DNA of 14,093 nucleotides from NCBI GenBank assembly GCA_016795185.1, contig JAEUIF010000468.1, forward strand, positions 1-14,093. Direction: 5' to 3'. Positions 2,988-12,444 of this stretch are shown here, piece after piece. The notes under the pieces were generated by a model. That model did no database searches. It was not told where the DNA came from and was given only the letters and a program-made list of their open reading frames with translations. Numbering within the stretch: position 1 is the first letter of the stretch; every line of letters starts with the position of its first letter. The DNA comes from Planctomycetia bacterium (GTDB lineage: Bacteria; Planctomycetota; Planctomycetia; Gemmatales; Gemmataceae). The position numbers and the translations under genes are program-made.

Positions 2988-3156
2988 GGAAGCGCCCTCC
3001 GGGAAAGGTTCGGTCGGAGACGGCTACACGGGAACCTCAGCATTATACCCACGCGCTCACGGCTACAGCTAGCCGCAGGGTGGCACGTCCTCGGTACTCC
3101 GAGGGCGTGAGAACCGCTGCACCATTCCCAAACTTCAACAATGAAAACGATGTCCG

Positions 3157-4662
3157 CTATTCTTGCGCACTGGCTGGGGCGGTCGTGCCATTGGCTTCCG
3201 ACCGTCGCGCGCCGAACTGGTCCGCCAGCGCGAGTACGCTGGCCAGGAAACCGGCCAGGCCGTCCCCTGGCGCGCCGTCACCGCCGATGTGGACCGAACG
3301 CAGTTCGTCGGGTTTGGGCAGCGTCGCGGCGATCTCCGGCAGCCGGGCGATCAACTGCGCTTGCAGGTGGGCGGAAGATAGGTCGTTGTCGAGGGCGCGG
3401 CGCTGCTTCTCCACGCCCAGGTCGCGCTCGTGGCGAGCGGCGGTTGCCTCATGGACCAGGGTCTCCGTCTGGAGCCGCGCCGCGGTGCGCGAGCGTTCCA
3501 GTTCGGCCCTGAGCTGTTCCAGTTCGGCTTGCTGGCGCAGGGACTGCAACTCTTGCTGCACGCGCCGGCCTTGCACGTCCAGTTCGTGCAGCGCGCGTTC
3601 CAGCTCCGCCTCGCGCCGCGTCTTCTCGGTGGCCGTCTGTTCGACCAGGGCGCGGCGCGCGGTCTGCTGCTCGATGTCGAACCGTCGGACTTTCTCGCTT
3701 TCCTCGCGGTCGAAGCGCTCGCGCTCCTGCTGGCTGCGGACGTCGGCCAGGCGCCGCTCCACTTCCAGTTCCGCGATTTCCCGCGTCTGGCGGTTGTGCA
3801 GTTCCTGTGCGGCAATTTGCTGCTGGGCTTCCAGTTCCGCCAGGCGGGCCAGTTTTTCGCGGTCGGCCCGGAACGGCTTCTGCAAGTTCTCCCAGACGCG
3901 CGTGGAACTGACTACCGCTTCCTTGATTTGCACGGTAACGATCTTCAGGCCGAGCCCCGTCGAGCGGTCGGCGGCCTCGTCGCCCTCCGCCACCGCCCGC
4001 AGGCGGTGCGTCAACTCGGCGATGATCGGCTGCTTGTCGTTGAGGATGGCGTCGATGCTCATGGTGGCCACCTTGTCCTTGATGGCCGCTTCCGCCTGTT
4101 CGCGCAGCTGCACCTTGACGATGCGCATGCGGTCGCCGGGGTCCGAGAAATCGAGCCGCCGGTAGGCCGTCTTCACGTCGTCCACCACCCACTGGACGTA
4201 AGCCTGAACCAGCACTCCCTGGCGTTCGGCGCAGATGCAACGAGCGTTGATGAGCAGAGTTTGCACCGCCGCGGGGATAATAAGAAAGGCATCGGTGGCG
4301 GGACGGTAGTGGAACGAAAGGCCCAGCCCGATGTTGATGGGCTCGGCATGGCCCCGCCGCGTGTGGACGACATAGACATTGGGCGCGACGACGACGGTTT
4401 TCCAAAAGCCAAAGCCGGTAATGCGATAGTCGGACGGCACAATGCCGGCGGCGCCGCCGGCATCTCGGGGTGCCTCATCCTCAATTCCTTTCATCCCCTT
4501 CTTGAACTCGACGATTCCCTTGGCAAGCTCGCGTCCGATCCCTCGCGTGGCGATCTGTACTGGCGCCGGCGGAGCCGGCTGATGCCGAGGTTGCAGGTCG
4601 CGCTCGACCTGGGCCTGTTGATTCATGACCTCGTTGAGATAACTGTTGGCTTGCTCGATCAT
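3157..4662 (-). CDS. SPFH/band-7 domain protein, flotillin-like (YqiK/FloT-type) with a C-terminal Glu/Ala/Arg-rich coiled coil
   Basis: The SPFH core (YRITGFGFWKTVVVAPNVYVVHTRRG ... IVTVQIKE) is followed by an EAELE/RREAELER-type heptad-rich region and a flotillin-like C-terminus. Start is chosen at the internal ATG (4660-4662, codon 26 of the track ORF) because GGGAGAA sits 6 nt upstream; the track ORF runs to 4737. Confidence 0.7.
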   Translation of the reverse strand: MIEQANSYLNEVMNQQAQVERDLQPRHQPAPPAPVQIATRGIGRELAKGIVEFKKGMKGIEDEAPRDAGGAAGIVPSDYRITGFGFWKTVVVAPNVYVVHTRRGHAEPINIGLGLSFHYRPATDAFLIIPAAVQTLLINARCICAERQGVLVQAYVQWVVDDVKTAYRRLDFSDPGDRMRIVKVQLREQAEAAIKDKVATMSIDAILNDKQPIIAELTHRLRAVAEGDEAADRSTGLGLKIVTVQIKEAVVSSTRVWENLQKPFRADREKLARLAELEAQQQIAAQELHNRQTREIAELEVERRLADVRSQQERERFDREESEKVRRFDIEQQTARRALVEQTATEKTRREAELERALHELDVQGRRVQQELQSLRQQAELEQLRAELERSRTAARLQTETLVHEATAARHERDLGVEKQRRALDNDLSSAHLQAQLIARLPEIAATLPKPDELRSVHIGGDGAPGDGLAGFLASVLALADQFGARRSEANGTTAPASAQE

Positions 4663-4756: not shown

Positions 4757-5836
4757 TTACCGCTTCAGCCAGCGATCCAACCAGTCGTAAGCGACCTGGC
4801 GCACTTCCGACGGGAAGTTATGGTCGCAATCGGGGTAGCTGGCGCTCAGCCGGTCGCCCGCGCCGAGCAGTTCATAGACCGGCCGGGCGGCCCGGATGCA
4901 ATCCTTGACGCCGTCGGGATCGAAGTTGTGGTCCTTCACCGGCGCGCTGGCCAGGAAGGCGCGCGGCGCGAGCGCCGCCGTCACCTCGGTGAAATCGAAG
5001 GGCACCTTCTCCGGTTTGAGGTCGTAAACGGTACGAAGGCGCGGCATGTAGCCGTCGTGGCTCCAGCCCTTCAGGTCGCCCTTCATGTATTTCGGAAAGC
5101 TGCAAAAGCCGCAGTTGGAAACGATACAGCGAATGCGCGGATCGAACGCGGCCACAAACATGCTGTTGTGCCCACCTAGCGAATGGCCGATGACGCCGAT
5201 GCGTTTGGGATCGACTTCCGCCAGCGACTCCAGCAGATCGACGCAACGCATGTGGTTCCAGATGCCCTTCATGGTCGCGCTGACGTAGCCGTGCTGATAG
5301 GGATCGAACTGGTACTCGCCCATGTTGACGTAGTCCGGCGCGAGCGTCACGTAACCGCGTTCGGCCAGGTGGACGGCATAGGCCCGGTCTTCCTTCGGCC
5401 CCAGGCCCACCGCCACGCCTTTGCCCAGGTCGCGGCTGGTGGGGTGCAGGCACAGCACGGCCGGCAGCCTGCCCTTCGCGTCGAGCGGGATCAGCAAGTA
5501 AGCCGGCAGCCGATCGCCCTTCTCGACTGCGAGGGTAAGCTTGCGGCGCAGGTACTTCTCCATCTTCACTTCCTCGACGACTCGCACGTCGAGCGGCACC
5601 TTGCGACTGTCGTCGGGCAACGGCCCCATCACCTGCTGCATGTTCGCCAGGATGTGCGCCCGCCGCTTGGCCCAGTCGTCCGCGCTGCGGACCGGATGTT
5701 CTTTGTTGTCGGCGTCGCGCCAGACAAGGAGCTTCGTTTTGTCGGGATAGGTCGGGGTTGTTTGTGCCAGGCCGCTGCCCGGCAGCGCGGCGACCGCACC
5801 CAGACTAACGAGCAGCAACCTCGCGAATGGCTTCAT
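4757..5836 (-). CDS. secreted alpha/beta-hydrolase (dienelactone hydrolase / acetyl esterase-like), Sec signal peptide
   Basis: GHSLGG nucleophile elbow (GxSxG) in an alpha/beta-hydrolase-like context. The signal peptide MKPFARLLLVSLGAVAALPGSGLAQ begins at the internal ATG (5834-5836), which has AGGAG 9 nt upstream; the track ORF extends to 5896. Confidence 0.62.
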   Translation of the reverse strand: MKPFARLLLVSLGAVAALPGSGLAQTTPTYPDKTKLLVWRDADNKEHPVRSADDWAKRRAHILANMQQVMGPLPDDSRKVPLDVRVVEEVKMEKYLRRKLTLAVEKGDRLPAYLLIPLDAKGRLPAVLCLHPTSRDLGKGVAVGLGPKEDRAYAVHLAERGYVTLAPDYVNMGEYQFDPYQHGYVSATMKGIWNHMRCVDLLESLAEVDPKRIGVIGHSLGGHNSMFVAAFDPRIRCIVSNCGFCSFPKYMKGDLKGWSHDGYMPRLRTVYDLKPEKVPFDFTEVTAALAPRAFLASAPVKDHNFDPDGVKDCIRAARPVYELLGAGDRLSASYPDCDHNFPSEVRQVAYDWLDRWLKR

Positions 5837-5889: not shown

Positions 5890-6156
5890 ATGGCAAGTAA
5901 ACTCTCCGCCCCGAACGACGCCGTTGAAATGTTCCACCGGTTGGTGGAACCGCGCAACGGCTAACTCACCAAGGCTGCGGCGCGCGTCATCCTCGGCTGG
6001 ACATTCGGGGAAGAAGATCGCACCCGCATGAATGAACTGGCCGAGAAGAATCGAGCGGGCGAACTCACGGCGGAGGAGCAAACCGAGTTGCACTGCTACC
6101 TGCGCGTGGGGAGCCTTCTCGATCTGCTGCACTCCAAGGCGCGCTTGAGCCTGTAA
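5890..6156 (+). pseudogene. small ORF (24 codons) with good RBS, followed after an in-frame TAA (5962-5964) by 63 further open codons in the same frame; possible interrupted small gene
   Basis: GAGGA lies 6 nt upstream of ATG 5890. The frame reads MASKLSAPNDAVEMFHRLVEPRNG*LTKAAARVILGWTFGEEDRTRMNELAEKNRAGELTAEEQTELHCYLRVGSLLDLLHSKARLSL*, with no alternative start near the beginning of the second segment. Confidence 0.3.
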
Positions 6157-6204
6157 CGGCAGGCCACTCGATCCAGCCCTGCCAAATCGCCGGTTGGCCT
6201 CAGT

Positions 6205-6455
6205 TCCGGAGCCCCGGAGGGGCGTAAGCGCTGTAGCCCACGGCGCGAGCCGTGGGACAACGATCCCAACCACACCTCAGCCCCGGCGGGGCGGAAGATA
6301 GTCCCAAACGGTTGCTGCACAAGCGAGGTGTCGAGCACGACGAGCCCTGTTCGCGCTGCTGCCTTTCGCCCCTCCGGGGCTGGGTGCATCGAGACGTTCC
6401 GTTCCCACGGCTTGCGCCGTGGGCTACCGTGCTATCGCCCCTCCGGGGCTAACAC
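6205..6455. repeat. Cluster of REP-like GC-rich palindromic units: 15-mer AGCCCCGGAGGGGCG (x3, both orientations) and hairpin CCCACGGC-NNNN-GCCGTGGG (x2); two 47-bp copies in inverted orientation (6210-6256 and 6404-6450)
   Basis: 6210-6256 reads agccccggaggggcgtaagcgctgtagcccacggcgcgagccgtggg. The reverse complement of 6404-6450 is agccccggaggggcgatagcacggtagcccacggcgcaagccgtggg, about 85% identical. An extra 15-mer copy lies at 6367-6381 and a variant cagccccggcggggcgg at about 6279-6295. All lie in the 3' intergenic region before the stop of the 6499-9528 gene. Confidence 0.8.
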
Positions 6456-6498
6456 AGCTTGCGACGCGCTCCAGCCGGGCGTCATTGGTCACTGTAAG

Positions 6499-9400
6499 TC
6501 ACTTCCGCCCCGCCACTCCCAGCAAATACGCGATCACATCCGCCAGGTCTTGCTTGGAGAGTTGCTTTTCCAGTTCGTCGGGCATCAGCGACTTGACCGT
6601 GGCCTGGATCTCGTCGATCTCGCCGCGCAGGATGGTGTCCTCCGCTTTCTCGGCCCGGCGCAGCGTGATGCTGCCGGGGGCGTTGACGGCCAGGATGCCC
6701 GTCAGGAAGCGGCCGTTCTTCGTTGTCACCACGTAGTTCAGGTAGCGCGGATCGACCTCGCGGCTGGGGTCGAGGATGTCGATGACCAGCCCTTCCGGAG
6801 TCTTGGTCTTCAGGGCCGCCAGCAGATCCGCGCCGACCTCCGCGCCTTCGTTCTCCAGGCGGTGACAGACGCTGCAATTCTTCTTGAAGACCGCCTTGCC
6901 ACGCGGCGCGTCGCCGGCCAGGTCCAGAGCGGTGCGGTAGTCGTCGATGACCTTCTGGCGGTCGCCGGTGGTGCGGGCGGCGAAGAGTTGTGCGACGCGC
7001 TTGCGCACCTCGGCATCCGGATGCTTGCGCAGCAGGTCCACGCGGGCGGCTTCGATCTGCCCTGGCAATACCTGCTTCTTCTCGACGGCGTCGAGCAGCT
7101 GCCGCACCCGCTCCGGCCGGCCGAGCAGGGCTTCGACGGCTTCGCGGCGCAGGTCGGGCGGGTAGCTGTTCCACGCAGCCAGCAGCAGGTCGGCGATCTT
7201 CGGGCTGTCCTGGGCGGAGAGAGCACGCACGGCGGCGAGCTGCACTTCCGGTGGGTGCTGCGGCGCGAGCAAGCCCGGCAACACATCGCCGCCGACGGCG
7301 AACGGCCCGACGCCCAGCAGACGCACGGCGGCGAGCCGTTCCGGCAGCGGTTGCTTCTCGTCGCGTGCCGTTTGCGCCGCCCGCTCGAAGAACGGCCGGG
7401 CCTTGCCAACCGCTTCCTTCAGTGCGGGTGAGGGTTCTTCCCAAAGCTTGCGCAGGGGCCGCTGGGCGATTTGCAGTCCTTGTCCCAGCCCGTCCAGCAC
7501 CGCCAGTTGCCAGGCGGGACTGACCGAGTCACCGCCAAGCAGCGTCAGGGCGCGGGCCAGGTCGGCATCGCTGTTGCTCGCGCCGATCAGCGTGGCCAGT
7601 CGGACCACGAATTGCCGTTCCTCGGCGGTCAGGTTTCGCACGAACTCGCGATCCTGGCTCAGCGTCGCCAGCAGGTCCGGCGCCTTGCCCTTCGCGGAGC
7701 TGAGGATCGCCAGCTGGAACCAGGATTGGCCGGCGTCGCGCCGCGCCAGCTTGGCCAGGGCCGTAGTCAATTCGGGAGCATCGGCCGCGCCCAGGGTGAA
7801 GGCCAATTGAAAGCGCACCCGCGCCTGGGCATGGTCCACCAGCGGCGTCATGCTTTGCCGCAGCGTCGCCGATGCGGCCAGTCGGTCCTCGGCCAGCCGC
7901 AGCGCTTGTTCGACGACATAGGGGTTGGCGGCTTTCAGGTTGGCTTCGATCAGTTCATCGTCCAGGGCCTTCAGGCCGTGCAGCGTCCAGAGTGCGTGCA
8001 TGCGGCCTTGGCCCGCCGGCACGCGGTCCAGCACCTTGTCTTCGCGCGCTAGCTTCTTCAAGGGCGCGACGGCGGCCTGGTCGTGGCGTTCGATCAGCAG
8101 CCGCTGGGCGGTCAGCCGTCGCCAGCTGTTTGGGCTGCCCAGCTGCTGGACCAACTCGGCGGCCGATGCCTTGCTCAGGGCGGGCAAGTGCTGCGGTTGC
8201 TGGGCGTCGCGCGCGAGCGTTTCGGGCACGATGCGCCAGATGCGGCCGCGCCCCCGGCTATCCAGGTTCAGCTTCTTTTTGATGTCGTCGGGCAGCGATA
8301 GCGGCGTCTCAATGGCTTCGCGGTAGAAATCACAAACGTAGATCGCACCGTCGGGACCGATAGTCAGGTTGACGGGGCGGAACCAGTTGTCGGTGGAAGC
8401 CAGGAACTCGCAACCCTCATCGGCCCGCTTGGCGGTGAAGATGCTGCCCTGATCGATCAAGATATCCCGATGGATCAAATTGTTCGCCGGCTCGCAGACG
8501 AAGCTCTGGCCGTAGTATGCCTCCGGAAACAGCCCGCCGTTGTAGACCACCGGACTGCACGCGGACGTGATGAAGCCGCCCGGCACCAGTTCCGTGGGCG
8601 AGAAGCGCTTGGAGTCCGTCCCGTCCTTGCGGCGCGTGGTGCGTTCGACGCGCCAGCCTTCAAACGGACTGATGCGATGCACCTGGCAGGCCGCGCCGTG
8701 GTCGGGAATGTCGATGGTCACGGCAGGTACGGCCAGCGCCGGGTTGCGGCGCAGGTAGTGGTCGGACAGCACAATCTGCCGGAGGTGCTGGCTGTTGGTG
8801 GCAGTGAACCAGTGCTGTCCGTCGTCGGCGGCCAGGCCGAACTGCCCGCCGCCGCTGGTCGGTTCCAGGCTGCCCGGCCGCGCCGGCTGGAAGCGGATGC
8901 CCCGGCCCCGCAGCGCCACGCCCGCTCCCAAGCCGTCGCCCGTGATGGTGCCGCCCTTGCCGCCCGCATTGGCGTAGACCCAGTTGTCCAGGCCCCATTG
9001 CAGGCTGTTCAGCAGCTGCTGAATGTTGTCGAGATCGAAGCCGGTGTAGAGGACTTTCTTTTCGTAGCCCTTCGCGGTCTTCTCGAAGTAGAGCAGGTCC
9101 GGAGCGACCGCCGCCAGCAGCCCGCCCTTGTACGGCATCACGGACGTGGGAAAGCGCAGGTTCTCGGCGAACGTGCTGCTGCTCTCGTAGTAGCCGTCAC
9201 CGTTCTTATCTTCGAGCAGCTTGATCTTGCCCGTGGAGATGTCGCCGGTGCCGAGGCCGCCGTTGGGATAGCCGCGCATCTCGGCGACATACATCCGGCC
9301 GTCCTCGTCGAAGGCTAGCGCCACCGGATCGACGACTTCCGGTTCGGCGGCGACCAGTTCGACCTTGAAGCCCTTGAGGATGCGGAAGGTGGCCAGTTCT

Positions 9401-9528
9401 TCGCGCGGCGACAGCGGCCCAGCCGGCGGGTCGCTCGGCTTGTCGGCGGCGGAAAGCAGGACCGCGCCGCCCGTGAGCACCAGCAGCATCAAACCGCGCG
9501 CGAGCAATCCGAAACGCGACATGGCCAC
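6499..9528 (-). CDS. Planctomycete/Verrucomicrobia-type large exported protein: N-terminal putative membrane-bound dehydrogenase (beta-propeller) domain, central HEAT-like repeats, C-terminal c-type heme-binding domain (CSVCH)
   Basis: Signal peptide, then FRILKGFKVELVAAEPEVVDPVALAFDEDGRMYVAEMRGYP, which is typical of the Pirellula/Verrucomicrobium dehydrogenase-domain family. The C-terminus has GKAVFKKNCSVCHRLENEG, a CxxCH heme motif. The start may be GTG at 9528 or ATG at 9522. Confidence 0.75.
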   Translation of the reverse strand: MAMSRFGLLARGLMLLVLTGGAVLLSAADKPSDPPAGPLSPREELATFRILKGFKVELVAAEPEVVDPVALAFDEDGRMYVAEMRGYPNGGLGTGDISTGKIKLLEDKNGDGYYESSSTFAENLRFPTSVMPYKGGLLAAVAPDLLYFEKTAKGYEKKVLYTGFDLDNIQQLLNSLQWGLDNWVYANAGGKGGTITGDGLGAGVALRGRGIRFQPARPGSLEPTSGGGQFGLAADDGQHWFTATNSQHLRQIVLSDHYLRRNPALAVPAVTIDIPDHGAACQVHRISPFEGWRVERTTRRKDGTDSKRFSPTELVPGGFITSACSPVVYNGGLFPEAYYGQSFVCEPANNLIHRDILIDQGSIFTAKRADEGCEFLASTDNWFRPVNLTIGPDGAIYVCDFYREAIETPLSLPDDIKKKLNLDSRGRGRIWRIVPETLARDAQQPQHLPALSKASAAELVQQLGSPNSWRRLTAQRLLIERHDQAAVAPLKKLAREDKVLDRVPAGQGRMHALWTLHGLKALDDELIEANLKAANPYVVEQALRLAEDRLAASATLRQSMTPLVDHAQARVRFQLAFTLGAADAPELTTALAKLARRDAGQSWFQLAILSSAKGKAPDLLATLSQDREFVRNLTAEERQFVVRLATLIGASNSDADLARALTLLGGDSVSPAWQLAVLDGLGQGLQIAQRPLRKLWEEPSPALKEAVGKARPFFERAAQTARDEKQPLPERLAAVRLLGVGPFAVGGDVLPGLLAPQHPPEVQLAAVRALSAQDSPKIADLLLAAWNSYPPDLRREAVEALLGRPERVRQLLDAVEKKQVLPGQIEAARVDLLRKHPDAEVRKRVAQLFAARTTGDRQKVIDDYRTALDLAGDAPRGKAVFKKNCSVCHRLENEGAEVGADLLAALKTKTPEGLVIDILDPSREVDPRYLNYVVTTKNGRFLTGILAVNAPGSITLRRAEKAEDTILRGEIDEIQATVKSLMPDELEKQLSKQDLADVIAYLLGVAGRK

Positions 9529-9571
9529 CCCTTGTATTGGCTTGCTACAGCAGTTTGCGACTGAATGGAGC

Positions 9572-9620
9572 GGTCCGCACAGCGGACCATACGGTATTCT
9601 GTAGGGTCCGCTGTGCGGAC
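9572..9620. promoter_or_regulatory. Pair of 7-bp-stem hairpins GGTCCGC-ACA-GCGGACC (9572-9588) and GGTCCGC-TGT-GCGGAC (9605-9620), mutually inverted, flanking a palindromic ATACGGTAT centre; candidate operator or terminator structure
   Basis: Seen directly in the intergenic region between the 3' end of the 9678-11036 gene and the start of the 6499-9528 gene. Confidence 0.4.
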
Positions 9621-9677
9621 TATTCCTCCGTGTGGTCCATCAATCAGCGAACCGCGCCAAACCGTAAACGGTTCGGG

Positions 9678-11036
9678 TTACTTGGTCAATTCGTGGACCT
9701 TGGCGACGATGCGTTCCTCGATGGCGGGCGACCACTTGGTCGGGAACCCGTAATAAATCATGGAGGAATCCGCCTCGTAACCGCCTTCTTTCAAGACCCG
9801 CGCCGACGGGATGTAGGCCATCACGTCGTTGGCGTAGGCCGTCACCCAGACTGGCGGGCCGCCGCTCAGTTCCTTCTTCAGCCGCAGGGCGTAATCGACC
9901 ACCACTTCGCCGCCCAGCCCGATCCACAGCAGGTCGTTGCCCAGCCGCCAGACCTGCACCGGGTAGTGGGGATAATGATCGTCGAGCTTGCCCTTGGTTT
10001 CCAGCGTTTTCAGCAGGCGCGTCGCGCGGTTGCGCAGCGCCAGGTTCTTGCTCAGGGTATCGGCCGTCAGCTGGTCCTTCGAGGGCAGTTCGCCCAACGG
10101 CAGCGTCACCGACGCCAGTTTCGCCTTGAAGGGACCGCGCACCGGCGACATCGGCTTGCGCAGCACATCGCCGACGGCTTCCGCCAGCCCCCGGCCGTGC
10201 GTCTGGGCATGTTCCACCTGGCCGCGCGGCTGCGGGTTGGCGTCGCCCGCGCAGCCGGCCCAGAACAGGGCGACCGCGCCCGGATGCTTCGCCTCCAGGT
10301 CGGCCTGGGCGAAGCCCGCGTAGTCGCCGCACCACTGGTAAAAGTTCAGCGTGGTGTTATGGCAAGCGTAGCCGAAGACCACCGCCCGCAGCTTGCCCTC
10401 GGGCGTTTCGACCTTCAGCACCGGGACATCGTGATCCACGGGACCGGCCGGATCGCGCAGATTGATGACGCCCTTCGGCGATGCCTCGCGCCGGTTCATC
10501 GCGAAACGAATGGTGCCCTTGCCGTGCGCCAGCCGCGCGGGCCGCAGGTCCTTCAGGGCCGCCTCGACGACCTCCACCATCCAGCGGTGCAGTTGCTCGG
10601 TGTAGGCTTCGATCTTCTTCGCGTGCTCCGGCCCCATCGGGTACATGTCGGCCAGGTTCTCGCGCAGCACCGGCCCGCAGTGGGTGTGCGAACTGGTGAG
10701 CATCAGGCGCTCGCGCGGCAGCCCGGTGCGTTTGCGCACCTCCTCGGCCACCGGCTCCGCCAGACTGCGCGGGAAGCCGATCAGGTCGCTGGTCAGCAGG
10801 ACCAGCTTGCCCCCGGCGGCGTCTTCGAGGGCCACCGCCTTGAGGAACAGGTCGTGCGTCTTGCCCTCGGCCGGCTTGGTCCGGGAGGCGTAGCCGGCCA
10901 TCCACAACGGCTCCGACGGTGTGACGACCTTCACCGCCACGCCGGCCTTGAGGGCGGACTCGTCGGCCGCGCGGACCGGCAGCAGGGCCAGCAGCGTCAA
11001 GCACAGAGCGATGCCTGTCGCAAGGCAGCGGGACAT
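9678..11036 (-). CDS. secreted neutral/alkaline (non-lysosomal) ceramidase-like hydrolase, N-terminal domain type
   Basis: The signal peptide MSRCLATGIALCLTLLALLPVRAADE starts at the internal ATG (11034-11036), which has GGGAG 8 nt upstream; the track ORF runs to 11165. The region AGVAVKVVTP..WMAGYA...LMLTSSHTHCGP matches the GKADITG..VGMMGYS...ATHTHSGP layout of neutral ceramidases. It is shorter than the Pseudomonas enzyme and lacks the C-terminal tail domain. Confidence 0.6.
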   Translation of the reverse strand: MSRCLATGIALCLTLLALLPVRAADESALKAGVAVKVVTPSEPLWMAGYASRTKPAEGKTHDLFLKAVALEDAAGGKLVLLTSDLIGFPRSLAEPVAEEVRKRTGLPRERLMLTSSHTHCGPVLRENLADMYPMGPEHAKKIEAYTEQLHRWMVEVVEAALKDLRPARLAHGKGTIRFAMNRREASPKGVINLRDPAGPVDHDVPVLKVETPEGKLRAVVFGYACHNTTLNFYQWCGDYAGFAQADLEAKHPGAVALFWAGCAGDANPQPRGQVEHAQTHGRGLAEAVGDVLRKPMSPVRGPFKAKLASVTLPLGELPSKDQLTADTLSKNLALRNRATRLLKTLETKGKLDDHYPHYPVQVWRLGNDLLWIGLGGEVVVDYALRLKKELSGGPPVWVTAYANDVMAYIPSARVLKEGGYEADSSMIYYGFPTKWSPAIEERIVAKVHELTK

Positions 11037-11520
11037 GGCAGGACTCCCGAAAATGGTTCGAGGTCGGTTGGCAACGCGGACGGAAAGGTAAACCCCCGTC
11101 CGGGCACGGAGTCGCAGGGAGAGTCCATCCAGGCCGGTCAGTGCCGCCGATTGGATGGGGGGCATCTACCGACTACCCTCCGTGCCAAGAAAAATCCGGC
11201 TGGCACCGAGCCTCAAAAACCCCAATGTTTTGCCACTGCGCGCCAAAATGCGTTTCCCGCCAGACTCCCCTTGAACCGCCGCACCTCGATTTGGCAGGAT
11301 GGCGGCTGCGGAGCGCCCGGGGCTGCCCGTGATGCGCCGCTCGCGGCTTCGCCGGGCGCGCTTCCCTCGGGCCGCGCCACCCGCCAGCTGGCATCCGCCT
11401 CCGTCCGTGCTACAATTCGCTGGTTCCACGACTCCACCCCGGAGTTCGCCCGTGACGGCCGTCTCCCAGCCAACCACCGTGCCCTCGCAACCCCGGTTGC
11501 TCGACCGGGTCCGGTAGGCC

Positions 11521-12444
11521 TTGCGCGTCCGGCATTACAGCCTGCGCACCGAGGAAGCCTACGTCGCCTGGATCAGACGCTACATCTACTTTCACCACAT
11601 TCGCCACCCGGACGCGATGGGCGCGGCGGAGATCAACGCCTTCCTGACCGACCTCGCCGTCAACGGCCGGGTCGCCGCCTACACCCAGTCCCAGGCCCTG
11701 TGCGCCTTGCTGTTCCTGTACACCACCGTGCTCGAACGGCCCTTCGGCGAGCTGGGCGATGTCATCCGGGCGCGCCGGCCCAAACGCTTACCGGTGGTGC
11801 TGACTCGGCCGGAAGTGCTCCGCGTCCTGGAGCACCTGACCGACACGTATCGCCTGATCGGCCGGTTGCTCTACGGCAGCGGCCTGCGCCTGATTGAAGG
11901 CTTGCGGCTGCGGGTCCAGGACGTGGATTTCGGCCGCCACGAAATCACCGTGCGCCAGGGCAAGGGCGACAAGGACCGTCGGACCATGCTGCCCAGCTGT
12001 ATTGCAGCCGACCTACAGGCGCACATCGAACGGGTCCGCGCGCTGCACCAGCGCGACCTGGCCGAGGGGTACGGCCGGGTCTACCTGCCGCACGCGCTGG
12101 AGCGCAAGCTGCCGCACGCGGCTGCCGAGTTCGGCTGGCAGTACGTGTTTCCAGCTGCCCGGCGCTCGCGCGACCCGCGTTCGGGCGCGGTGCGACGCCA
12201 CCACGCCCACGAAGCGGCCATTTCGCGCGCCCTCACCGACGCCGTCCGCCGCTCCGGTATCCGCAAGCGGGCGACCAGTCATTCCTTCCGGCACAGTTTT
12301 GCGACGCACCTACTGGAAGCCGGCCACGACATTCGGACGGTGCAAGAACTACTCGGCCACGAAGACGTAAGTACCACGATGATCTACTGCCACGTACTGA
12401 ACAAGGGCGGCCTGGGAGTGCCCAGCCCCCTGGACGGGTTCTGA
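11521..12444 (+). CDS. intI: tyrosine recombinase with IntI-specific insertion (integron integrase-like); TTG-start ORF whose conserved N-terminus lies upstream of an in-frame TAG (11515-11517), see findings
   Basis: The [19 protein letters not shown] and [14 protein letters not shown] motifs are present, along with the IntI-specific insertion [37 protein letters not shown]. The catalytic-region motifs RHSFATHLL and [16 protein letters not shown] are also present. Similarity to IntI1/VchIntIA across the whole length is strong and recognisable from memory. Confidence 0.92.

Follow-up and report, generated by a model that had tools for sequence, protein, structure and literature searches.

The window considered here, meaning the whole 14,093-nt stretch of DNA that was analysed, comes from a Gemmataceae-like genome and holds, between the convergent stop codons of two genes (6156 on the plus strand and 6499 on the minus strand), a 241-nt composite of repeated hairpins at 6210-6450 to which no strand is assigned. 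A first-pass annotation of the sequence had described REP-like palindromes in a convergent 3' intergenic region, and the element is indeed extragenic at exactly such a place. The right neighbour (6499-9528, minus strand) encodes a 1009-aa PVC-type heme-binding/membrane-bound dehydrogenase-like protein that is 89% identical to two JGI metagenome proteins (P0001/P0002) and about 66% identical to proteins of Gemmataceae MAGs; the gene stops 48 nt short of the element. The left neighbour (5890-6156, plus strand), whose stop lies 53 nt away, has an ortholog of 97 aa in the syntenic relatives discussed below, is interrupted by an in-frame TAA at 5962-5964, and is a probable pseudogene.

Two kinds of hairpin make up the element. 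The first, H1, is a 20-nt hairpin of the form CCCACGGC-4nt-GCCGTGGG with two copies, starting at 6237 and 6404, and the second, H2, is the 15-nt AGCCCCGGAGGGGCG, which when matched as written has four copies, at 6210 (plus), 6279 (plus, one mismatch), 6367 (minus) and 6436 (minus). The left unit (6210-6256, minus strand) consists of an outer H2 hairpin, H2a (6210-6224, minus; GCCCC-GGA-GGGGC, with the boundary dinucleotide AG), a 9-nt linker and, in plus-strand reading, a GTAG foot with its H1 hairpin CCCACGGC-GCGA-GCCGTGGG (6233-6256). It is followed by a 22-nt left-arm spacer (6257-6278, no strand assigned) and by an inner left H2 with the loop variant GGC (6279-6293, minus), the equivalent of the H2 of a truncated second unit. 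Beyond a 73-nt centre (6294-6366, no strand assigned), the position taken by a Y1 transposase gene in full-length elements, come the inner right H2 (6367-6381, plus), a 22-nt right-arm spacer (6382-6403, no strand assigned) and the right unit (6404-6450, plus), composed of H1 at 6404-6423, CTAC at 6424-6427, the linker and H2a at 6436-6450. The full order is H2-9nt-GTAG-H1-22nt-H2-[73 nt]-H2-22nt-H1-CTAC-9nt-H2, with a GTAG foot at both H1 copies and six hairpins placed symmetrically about 6330, an inverted doublet like those of REPINs and BIMEs.

The cluster is real and far from chance. Four matches to AGCCCCGGAGGGGCG compare with 0.20 expected, and four or more were seen in 0/200 shuffles, while CCCACGGCNNNNGCCGTGGG, which starts at 6237 and 6404, has two matches against 0.03 expected and was equalled in 0/200 shuffles, so that chance palindromes are excluded for both hairpins. 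The earlier description of units recurring in both orientations is borne out by these counts, and its two 47-bp copies, said to be about 85% identical as reverse complements, come close enough to what was measured, namely arms of 48 nt (6210-6257 and 6403-6450) that are 90% complementary and 145 nt apart. Both stems are wholly paired in each copy of the unit in the window. No further copy of H1 or H2 was found elsewhere in the 14 kb. The mirror symmetry of the whole cluster, and the fact that the 241 nt, folded as one strand, form a single long hairpin (RNA fold -172 kcal/mol, z -9.9; DNA fold -97 kcal/mol, z -10.6), had been missed at first pass.

A structure so extremely stable on either strand, and so close to the stop codons of two convergent genes (48 and 53 nt), could have its main role at the level of the transcript, as a terminator that works in both directions without a U-tract or as a stabiliser of 3' ends, with its repetitiveness incidental, and such effects are reported for enterobacterial REPs (PMC3733652). 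A search of both strands between 5700 and 6800 returned 0 terminator-like sites, by which an intrinsic (Rho-independent) terminator is rejected and the broader proposal is left with no terminator consensus to point to. Furthermore, one of the two neighbours is the probable pseudogene described above, the orthologous gene pair works without the element in both syntenic relatives (L232 and L233, 89% amino acid identity), and a role in the transcript would account neither for the Y1 genes associated with the units nor for the conservation of NTAG and CT, both of which are described below. A transcript-level main role is accordingly judged unlikely, and it is compatible, as a secondary effect, with the mobile-element reading developed in what follows.

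The same relatives show how variable this spot is. The element is absent at the orthologous site in both, and no repeat unit occurs anywhere in their 27 kb; the orthologous spot carries an HNH-endonuclease gene in L232 and only the first codons of an HNH gene in L233. Because this HNH gene polymorphism occupies the same spot, the comparison with an empty site is not a clean one.

The 47-nt unit formed by H1 and H2 is Acido-Lenti-1, Rfam family RF01687. In cmscan the right unit (6404-6450, plus) scored 38.6 bits (E 7e-6), above the family gathering score of 37, and the left unit (6210-6256, minus) scored 36.9 bits, just under it; a weak partial match also covers the inner right H2 (6352-6381), and R1, a model of our own, gives 45.2 bits for the left unit and 48.4 bits for the right. 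The likeness extends through the whole 46-47-nt unit, from the 8-bp hairpin with its CU..CG loop, GGCUA and the linker of about 8-9 nt to the 3' part with CG, a 5-bp hairpin with a UUC/UCC loop and a terminal CU. Acido-Lenti-1 was judged to be probably an RNA acting in trans, known from Acidobacteria and Lentisphaerae and at times found near group II introns (Weinberg et al., 2010, PMC2864571), and a 2026 preprint, which gives its function as unknown, suggests that it might regulate protease genes in Tannerella. Rfam lists an sRNA gene of unknown function, whereas the window holds an inverted doublet of the unit in a Gemmataceae-like genome. The 2010 seed of 89 sequences contains two copies from Rhodopirellula baltica, and GTAG-tagged REPs of Planctomyces and R. 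baltica appear in a 2013 catalogue (PMC3733652), so the first-pass statement that such elements have not been characterised in Planctomycetes does not hold. The seed also contains clustered copies with periods of 69-74, 110-115 and 192 nt, and the shortest of these resemble the 69-nt distance from H2 to H2 in the window.

How far the unit has spread was surveyed with patterns of the H1-H2 junction. A degenerate version matched 32 stretches in IMG/VR, and a stricter one matched at least 118 eight-kb blocks of species-representative genomes. Most of the matches listed in the latter are from Acidobacteriota; the planctomycete ones listed are from Pirellulales, Isosphaeraceae, Gemmataceae, Frigoriglobus, Schlesneria, Phycisphaerae and Brocadiaceae, and the others listed are from Verrucomicrobiota, Lentisphaerae, Chlamydiae, Desulfobacterota, Ignavibacteria/Kapaibacterium and Bacteroidota. 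The mirror composite H2-H1-H2-centre-H2-H1-H2 is present in at least 30 of the fetched loci, with lengths of 120-241 nt (mostly 173-217 nt), and these loci come from at least five phyla, including Acidobacteriota, Planctomycetota, Verrucomicrobiota, Desulfobacterota and Bacteroidota. No match to the window element was found among plasmids. Copies are sparse, since sampling yielded five further sites in 666 kb overall and none in 107 kb of Planctomycetota loci, a density well below that of classical REPs, which reach about 100 or more copies in a host genome.

Units also form exact tandem arrays elsewhere, with periods of 68, 73 and 89 nt, in which the spacers are repeated together with the hairpins at 96-99% matches, and it is because such arrays exist that the inner H2 can be read as the start of a truncated second unit, which explains the 69-nt spacing. 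A CRISPR array had been considered as well; the window arrangement is mirror-like and the arrays elsewhere repeat their spacers too, and this candidate was rejected.

Both stems covary. A gapless alignment of 116 units, whose rows were pre-selected for pairing, has changes on both sides of 12 of the 13 base pairs (278 cells), an independent set aligned by model has them in 9 of 13 (157 cells), and the covariation score was reached by 0/500 shuffles in either set. The two outer H2 hairpins of one element are often unlike each other, therefore selection acts on the local hairpins and not solely on the long palindrome. Such covariation, together with one Rfam match above the gathering score and the rating given to the motif by Weinberg et al., is what speaks for the element being one or two small trans-acting RNA genes with hairpins that work as RNA. 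However, covariation in a palindrome is equally compatible with hairpins of single-stranded DNA, and the remaining observations fit an RNA gene poorly: the units form mirror pairs on opposite strands, with the order '-+' (H2 outermost) found 28 times and '+-' twice under strict detection, they occur in the exact tandem arrays just described, and at 58 of 80 loci they stand inverted on the two sides of a transposase gene (see below). At the window itself, no promoter-like consensus was found at the element, the terminator search was equally empty, and two close syntenic relatives lack the element altogether. Considering in addition that the spectrum of mismatches prefers the strand antisense to the Rfam model, it is hard to maintain the small RNA reading, and I regard it as quite improbable.

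That strand preference was obtained from 184 unique units collected under a strand-symmetric detection rule. Their non-Watson-Crick positions comprise 21 A.C/C.A, 8 G.T/T.G and 10 other combinations, mostly transitions, and the preponderance of A.C over G.T (21 vs 8; binomial p = 0.024) is a modest effect among related, non-independent copies. An excess of A.C on the Rfam sense strand means that wobble pairs are tolerated on the opposite one, the strand that reads 5'-(G)TAG-hairpin, and this modestly suggests that the better-paired strand, antisense to the Rfam model, is the one in the orientation of a REP/RAYT (TnpA-REP) substrate. The foot of the family as a whole is NTAG, with TAG nearly invariant and a variable first base, and GTAG is found in 54 of the 184 units (29%). 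TnpA-REP acts on single-stranded REPs, which it cuts at C|T on both sides of the hairpin, and the last two bases of GTAG help it to select its site (PMC8266576); because of this cleavage preference, the invariant CT dinucleotides that follow H1 and H2 would be candidate cleavage sites. Outside the terminal CT and the outer H2, no conserved sequence was found across loci, and direct repeats at the borders were as frequent as in shuffled sequence, so no target-site duplication was detected. The lack of both a target duplication and a conserved outer sequence fits HUH single-strand transposition.

These borders bear on another possibility, that the element is a conventional MITE, i.e., a DDE-type insertion sequence that has lost its interior and kept its terminal inverted repeats, or else that it was left behind by an inverted duplication at the site, in which no dedicated enzyme took part. 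The arms do look like long terminal inverted repeats (48 nt, 90%), and in at least 6 of 30 composites the symmetry continues for 10-20 nt past the outer hairpin, as an inverted duplication would give. However, target-site duplications are not above chance, on which ground a MITE of a DDE transposon was rejected despite its TIR-like arms; the arms consist of modular hairpins whose stems covary independently and whose outer H2 often differs from one arm to the other; and the one gene that recurs between the arms encodes a Y1/HUH protein, not a DDE transposase. IS110-family transposase genes do lie within or beside the repeats in four loci, and these are insertions into the element; IS110-family elements are known to target REPs. 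A conventional MITE or duplication scar is thus very improbable.

The gene between the arms was encountered in the loci fetched first, where 3 of 150 encode a Y1/HUH protein and each of these genes immediately adjoins units; at L033 and L093 the Y1 gene (PF01797) is exactly central in the composite. In the reverse direction, an alignment of the three Y1 proteins retrieved 80 metagenomic loci with relatives 45-93% identical, in which units were located by a covariance model built from the units and flanks were scored within 200 nt. A minus-strand unit upstream together with a plus-strand unit downstream was found at 58 of the 80 loci. Of the others, 8 have one flank on a contig that does not extend over the opposite side, 11 have a single flank only, and 3 have no flank. 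The inverted pair at the 58 loci stands 40-60 nt from the start and stop codons; the median gap is 52 nt on the start-codon side and 49 nt on the stop-codon side, and the background at more than 400 nt from the Y1 gene is 10 units in 184 kb, all of which makes the association of the units with Y1 genes a tight one. Approximately two thirds of the arms that flank a Y1 gene also carry the inner H2, most commonly 35-40 nt from H1, and the distance is 38 nt in both arms of the window element. I did not find this link between RF01687 and a transposase in the literature accessible to search; Rfam notes only the proximity of group II introns.

The arrangement is not confined to metagenomic contigs, as plasmid3 of the isolate Persicobacter sp. 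JZB09 (CP012861.1) has it too, at about 286.85-287.28 kb, around a Y1 gene whose product is 35% identical, and the arm sequence is dispersed over 9 places in this 632-kb replicon and 13 in a related replicon of 1.07 Mb. Searching plasmids with the Y1 proteins returned only distant relatives of at most 35% identity, one of which, from Bernardetia, has a different inverted repeat, and no Y1 relatives were found in IMG/VR. A query with the high-GC protein of locus L204 returned names from Verrucomicrobia, Bacteroidetes and KSB1 and no planctomycete homolog, and profile searches of the window, the 27 kb of the two relatives and about 107 kb of repeat-bearing Planctomycetota loci revealed neither a Y1 gene nor a remnant of one (E > 1 for the 73-nt centre). 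The first-pass annotation had proposed looking for an associated RAYT (IS200-like) gene, and such a partner does exist, in other genomes; it was not found in the window, in the two relatives or in the planctomycete loci searched, and it is of the IS200 type and not a RAYT.

The enzyme class rests on several comparisons. The three Y1 proteins match PF01797 and score 71-77 bits with the IS200/IS605 model NF033573 (cutoff 55), and only 21-37 bits with the RAYT model NF047646 (REP_Tyr_transpos; cutoff 80), and their best solved relatives are the TnpA proteins of ISHp608 (IS608) and ISDra2 (E 2e-6 to 5e-6); the associated enzyme is IS200-type and not a classical RAYT. The signature Y---Q--HH, present in 70 of the 74 recovered Y1 proteins, which are about 150 aa long, is diagnostic for TnpA-Y1 subclass 1.2 (Quentin et al., 2018, PMC6006769). 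The proteins are assigned to that subclass by signature only; they also resemble it in length, closeness to IS200 transposases, low copy number and a behaviour unlike that of insertion sequences, but subclass 1.2 is generally without terminal secondary structures and mostly cyanobacterial or from Bacteroidetes (PMC6006769), whereas the genes found here have inverted two-hairpin flanks, and the contigs that carry them are for the most part Acidobacteria-like, from Verrucomicrobia or of other origin.

As for the behaviour of these genes, three groups of Y1 loci (L155/L158/L159, L212/L227 and L033/L151/L154) are syntenic and show as much divergence in the flanks as in the gene, and two pairs (L189/L197 and L182/L215) have only the element of about 600-700 nt in common, at about 90% identity and in different contexts. 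That many loci are syntenic points to a gene that is resident or domesticated and does not transpose often, and since other loci share the element alone, resident plus mobile behaviour is suggested.

Taken together, the cluster is likely a gene-less, non-autonomous REP-like DNA element, the counterpart of the Y1-carrying element found elsewhere. It would be an inverted doublet of the Acido-Lenti-1 unit in which each arm carries, beyond that unit, the H2 of a second, truncated one. If the TnpA of IS200/IS605 and TnpA-REP are a guide, a cognate Y1 protein acting in trans would recognise H1 and its (G)TAG foot when the DNA is single-stranded, and probably H2 as well. This protein may cut and rejoin the DNA at the invariant CT/AG dinucleotides that bound the units, and units, doublets and tandem arrays could be copied or moved in this way. 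In addition, the strong hairpins may secondarily affect the two convergent transcripts.

The closest systems for comparison are the REPs and REPtrons with their RAYT genes (PMC2817692, PMC3479197, PMC8266576), which likewise have a GC-rich hairpin outside genes, a (G)TAG foot to it, a Y1/HUH gene bracketed by inverted copies, dimers and clusters as in BIMEs, an invariant CT beside the hairpins, a position between convergent or co-directional genes, and Y1 loci some of which are syntenic and apparently inherited vertically. The earlier label of REP-like fares well on this comparison in part through other genomes, where inverted units flank Y1 at 58/80 loci, at L033 and L093 and in Persicobacter, and in part through the window, where the 5' GT[AG]G foot stands at H1 and the location is extragenic; an enzyme of the RAYT class is what does not fit. 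The Acido-Lenti-1 unit differs from a REP in being bipartite, with two different hairpins 12 nt apart, and in its NTAG foot, and the Y1 proteins differ from RAYTs by passing NF033573 and failing NF047646. The sampled density of the units, moreover, would amount to tens of copies per genome and not hundreds. Bertels and Rainey in 2011 reportedly described REPINs as two inverted REP units that form one long hairpin, a pair considered to be what replicates. Compared with these, the window element measures 241 nt, of which the centre takes up 73 nt, and each arm has 1.3 units, and in other loci the outer hairpins differ so that the long hairpin is not always kept.

Similarly, the paper on TIRtrons and their TIRYT proteins (Di Nocera et al., 2013, PMC3733652) describes Y1 genes with long inverted flanks, some of them 'double palindromic', and moderately abundant repeats as dimers and clusters, with Acidobacteria included. 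However, the acidobacterial proteins given there carry the RAYT-type motif Y..NPV and the clade here carries Y---Q--HH, and on this comparison of protein motifs the proposal that the two are the same clade was rejected. The IS200/IS605 elements and the gene-less PATEs share the catalytic family (a Y1/HUH enzyme, at other loci), hairpin-based ends and the lack of a target duplication, but they have asymmetric hairpins in direct orientation and a target tetra- or pentanucleotide, whereas the ends here are inverted and no conserved target is present.

A wider proposal, to which I would give slightly better than even chances, is that the entire RF01687 family serves as the DNA recognition module in an undescribed REPtron-like system with an IS200-type, subclass-1.2-like (Y---Q--HH) Y1 protein, and not as a small RNA, with the window holding an orphan Gemmataceae doublet. 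If this is true, the RF01687 system would extend over at least eight phyla, with a bipartite substrate and partial residence at syntenic loci, and would be intermediate between the IS200 insertion sequences and the domesticated RAYT/REP systems. The finding at the window itself is a modest one, that is, a catalogued motif in a new host lineage at a variable spot between two genes. For those who annotate genomes, hits to Acido-Lenti-1 would be read as a repeat or the scar of a mobile element and not as a regulator, and the little-studied Y---Q--HH clade of Y1 proteins gains a candidate DNA substrate. The finding also adds a two-hairpin, low-copy system to the range that lies between IS200 elements and domesticated REP/RAYT systems.

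The intergenic spot that holds the hairpin composite in the window (6157-6498) differs in content among the window and its two syntenic relatives, L232 and L233, with an intact HNH endonuclease gene of 142 aa lying downstream of a 97-aa gene in L232 (6333-6786), a remnant of only the first ~13 HNH codons in L233 (5964-6016), and the composite in place of the HNH gene in the window. The 97-aa protein and the HNH endonuclease look like a small two-gene module. The ortholog of the 97-aa gene, present in both relatives, adjoins the composite in the window (5890-6156, + strand), where it is 8 codons shorter at its end and carries an in-frame TAA (5962-5964) at a position occupied by Arg/Asn in L232/L233; it is probably a pseudogene, or else a sequencing error lies behind the stop. 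Two long ORFs elsewhere in the window, of 786 aa (9537-11897, + strand) and 508 aa (1461-2987, - strand), had no Pfam match at E <= 0.01, and L232 encodes two counterparts of the latter protein in tandem, each of 508 aa (8361-9887 and 10009-11535).

Among the 30 composites compared across phyla, inverted symmetry runs 10-20 nt past the outer H2 hairpin into what was expected to be flanking DNA in at least six (L020/L021, L067, L068, L091, L099 and others), and this could mean that the element is longer in the lineages concerned, that it inserted into a target that was itself palindromic, or that it arose by inverted duplication. REPs elsewhere are targets of IS110 elements. Since genes for IS110-family transposases (PF01548 + PF02371) are located within composites or immediately beside them in four independent loci (L061, 2201-3532; L039, 3591-4694; L170, 1215-2312; L176, 2371-2673), splitting the composite in two of them, the evidence suggests that these hairpins too are an IS110 target.

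The unit, H1 plus H2, also occurs with a spacer in exact tandem arrays, one on each side of a single Y1 transposase gene in L182 (2073-2499, 6.3 x 68 nt; 3091-3431, 4.6 x 73 nt) and another in L124, a Planctomycetales MAG (5946-6239, 3.3 x 89 nt); a CRISPR-like reading of these arrays was ruled out because their spacers are identical.

Elements made of Y1 plus arms bear signs of both vertical residence and movement. They occupy syntenic positions in three groups (L155/L156/L158/L159, L212/L214/L227 and L033/L151/L154), in which the flanks have diverged as much as the element itself (~75-79%), and in L189/L197 and L182/L215 only the ~600-700-nt element is common, at ~90% identity and in unrelated contexts. 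L033 has, ~70 nt to the left of its full-length element, a second right arm (H2-spacer-H1-H2; 5330-5440 compared with 6046-6160), and the ~35 nt after this arm resemble the sequence following the element's own right arm; local duplication or insertion beside an older copy is suggested.

On a Bernardetia sp. plasmid (L234, NZ_CP147018.1), a Y1 gene of 35% identity, which bears an IS200/IS605 transposase annotation, has on each side two copies of a ~30-nt inverted repeat, AAGCTGCGTAGCTGCGTAATATTTGTAGAAAT (1886-1968 and 2492-2564); this repeat is unlike the Acido-Lenti-1 unit and is not matched by the Acido-Lenti-1 model. The repeat with which the Y1 gene family is paired appears to vary from lineage to lineage.
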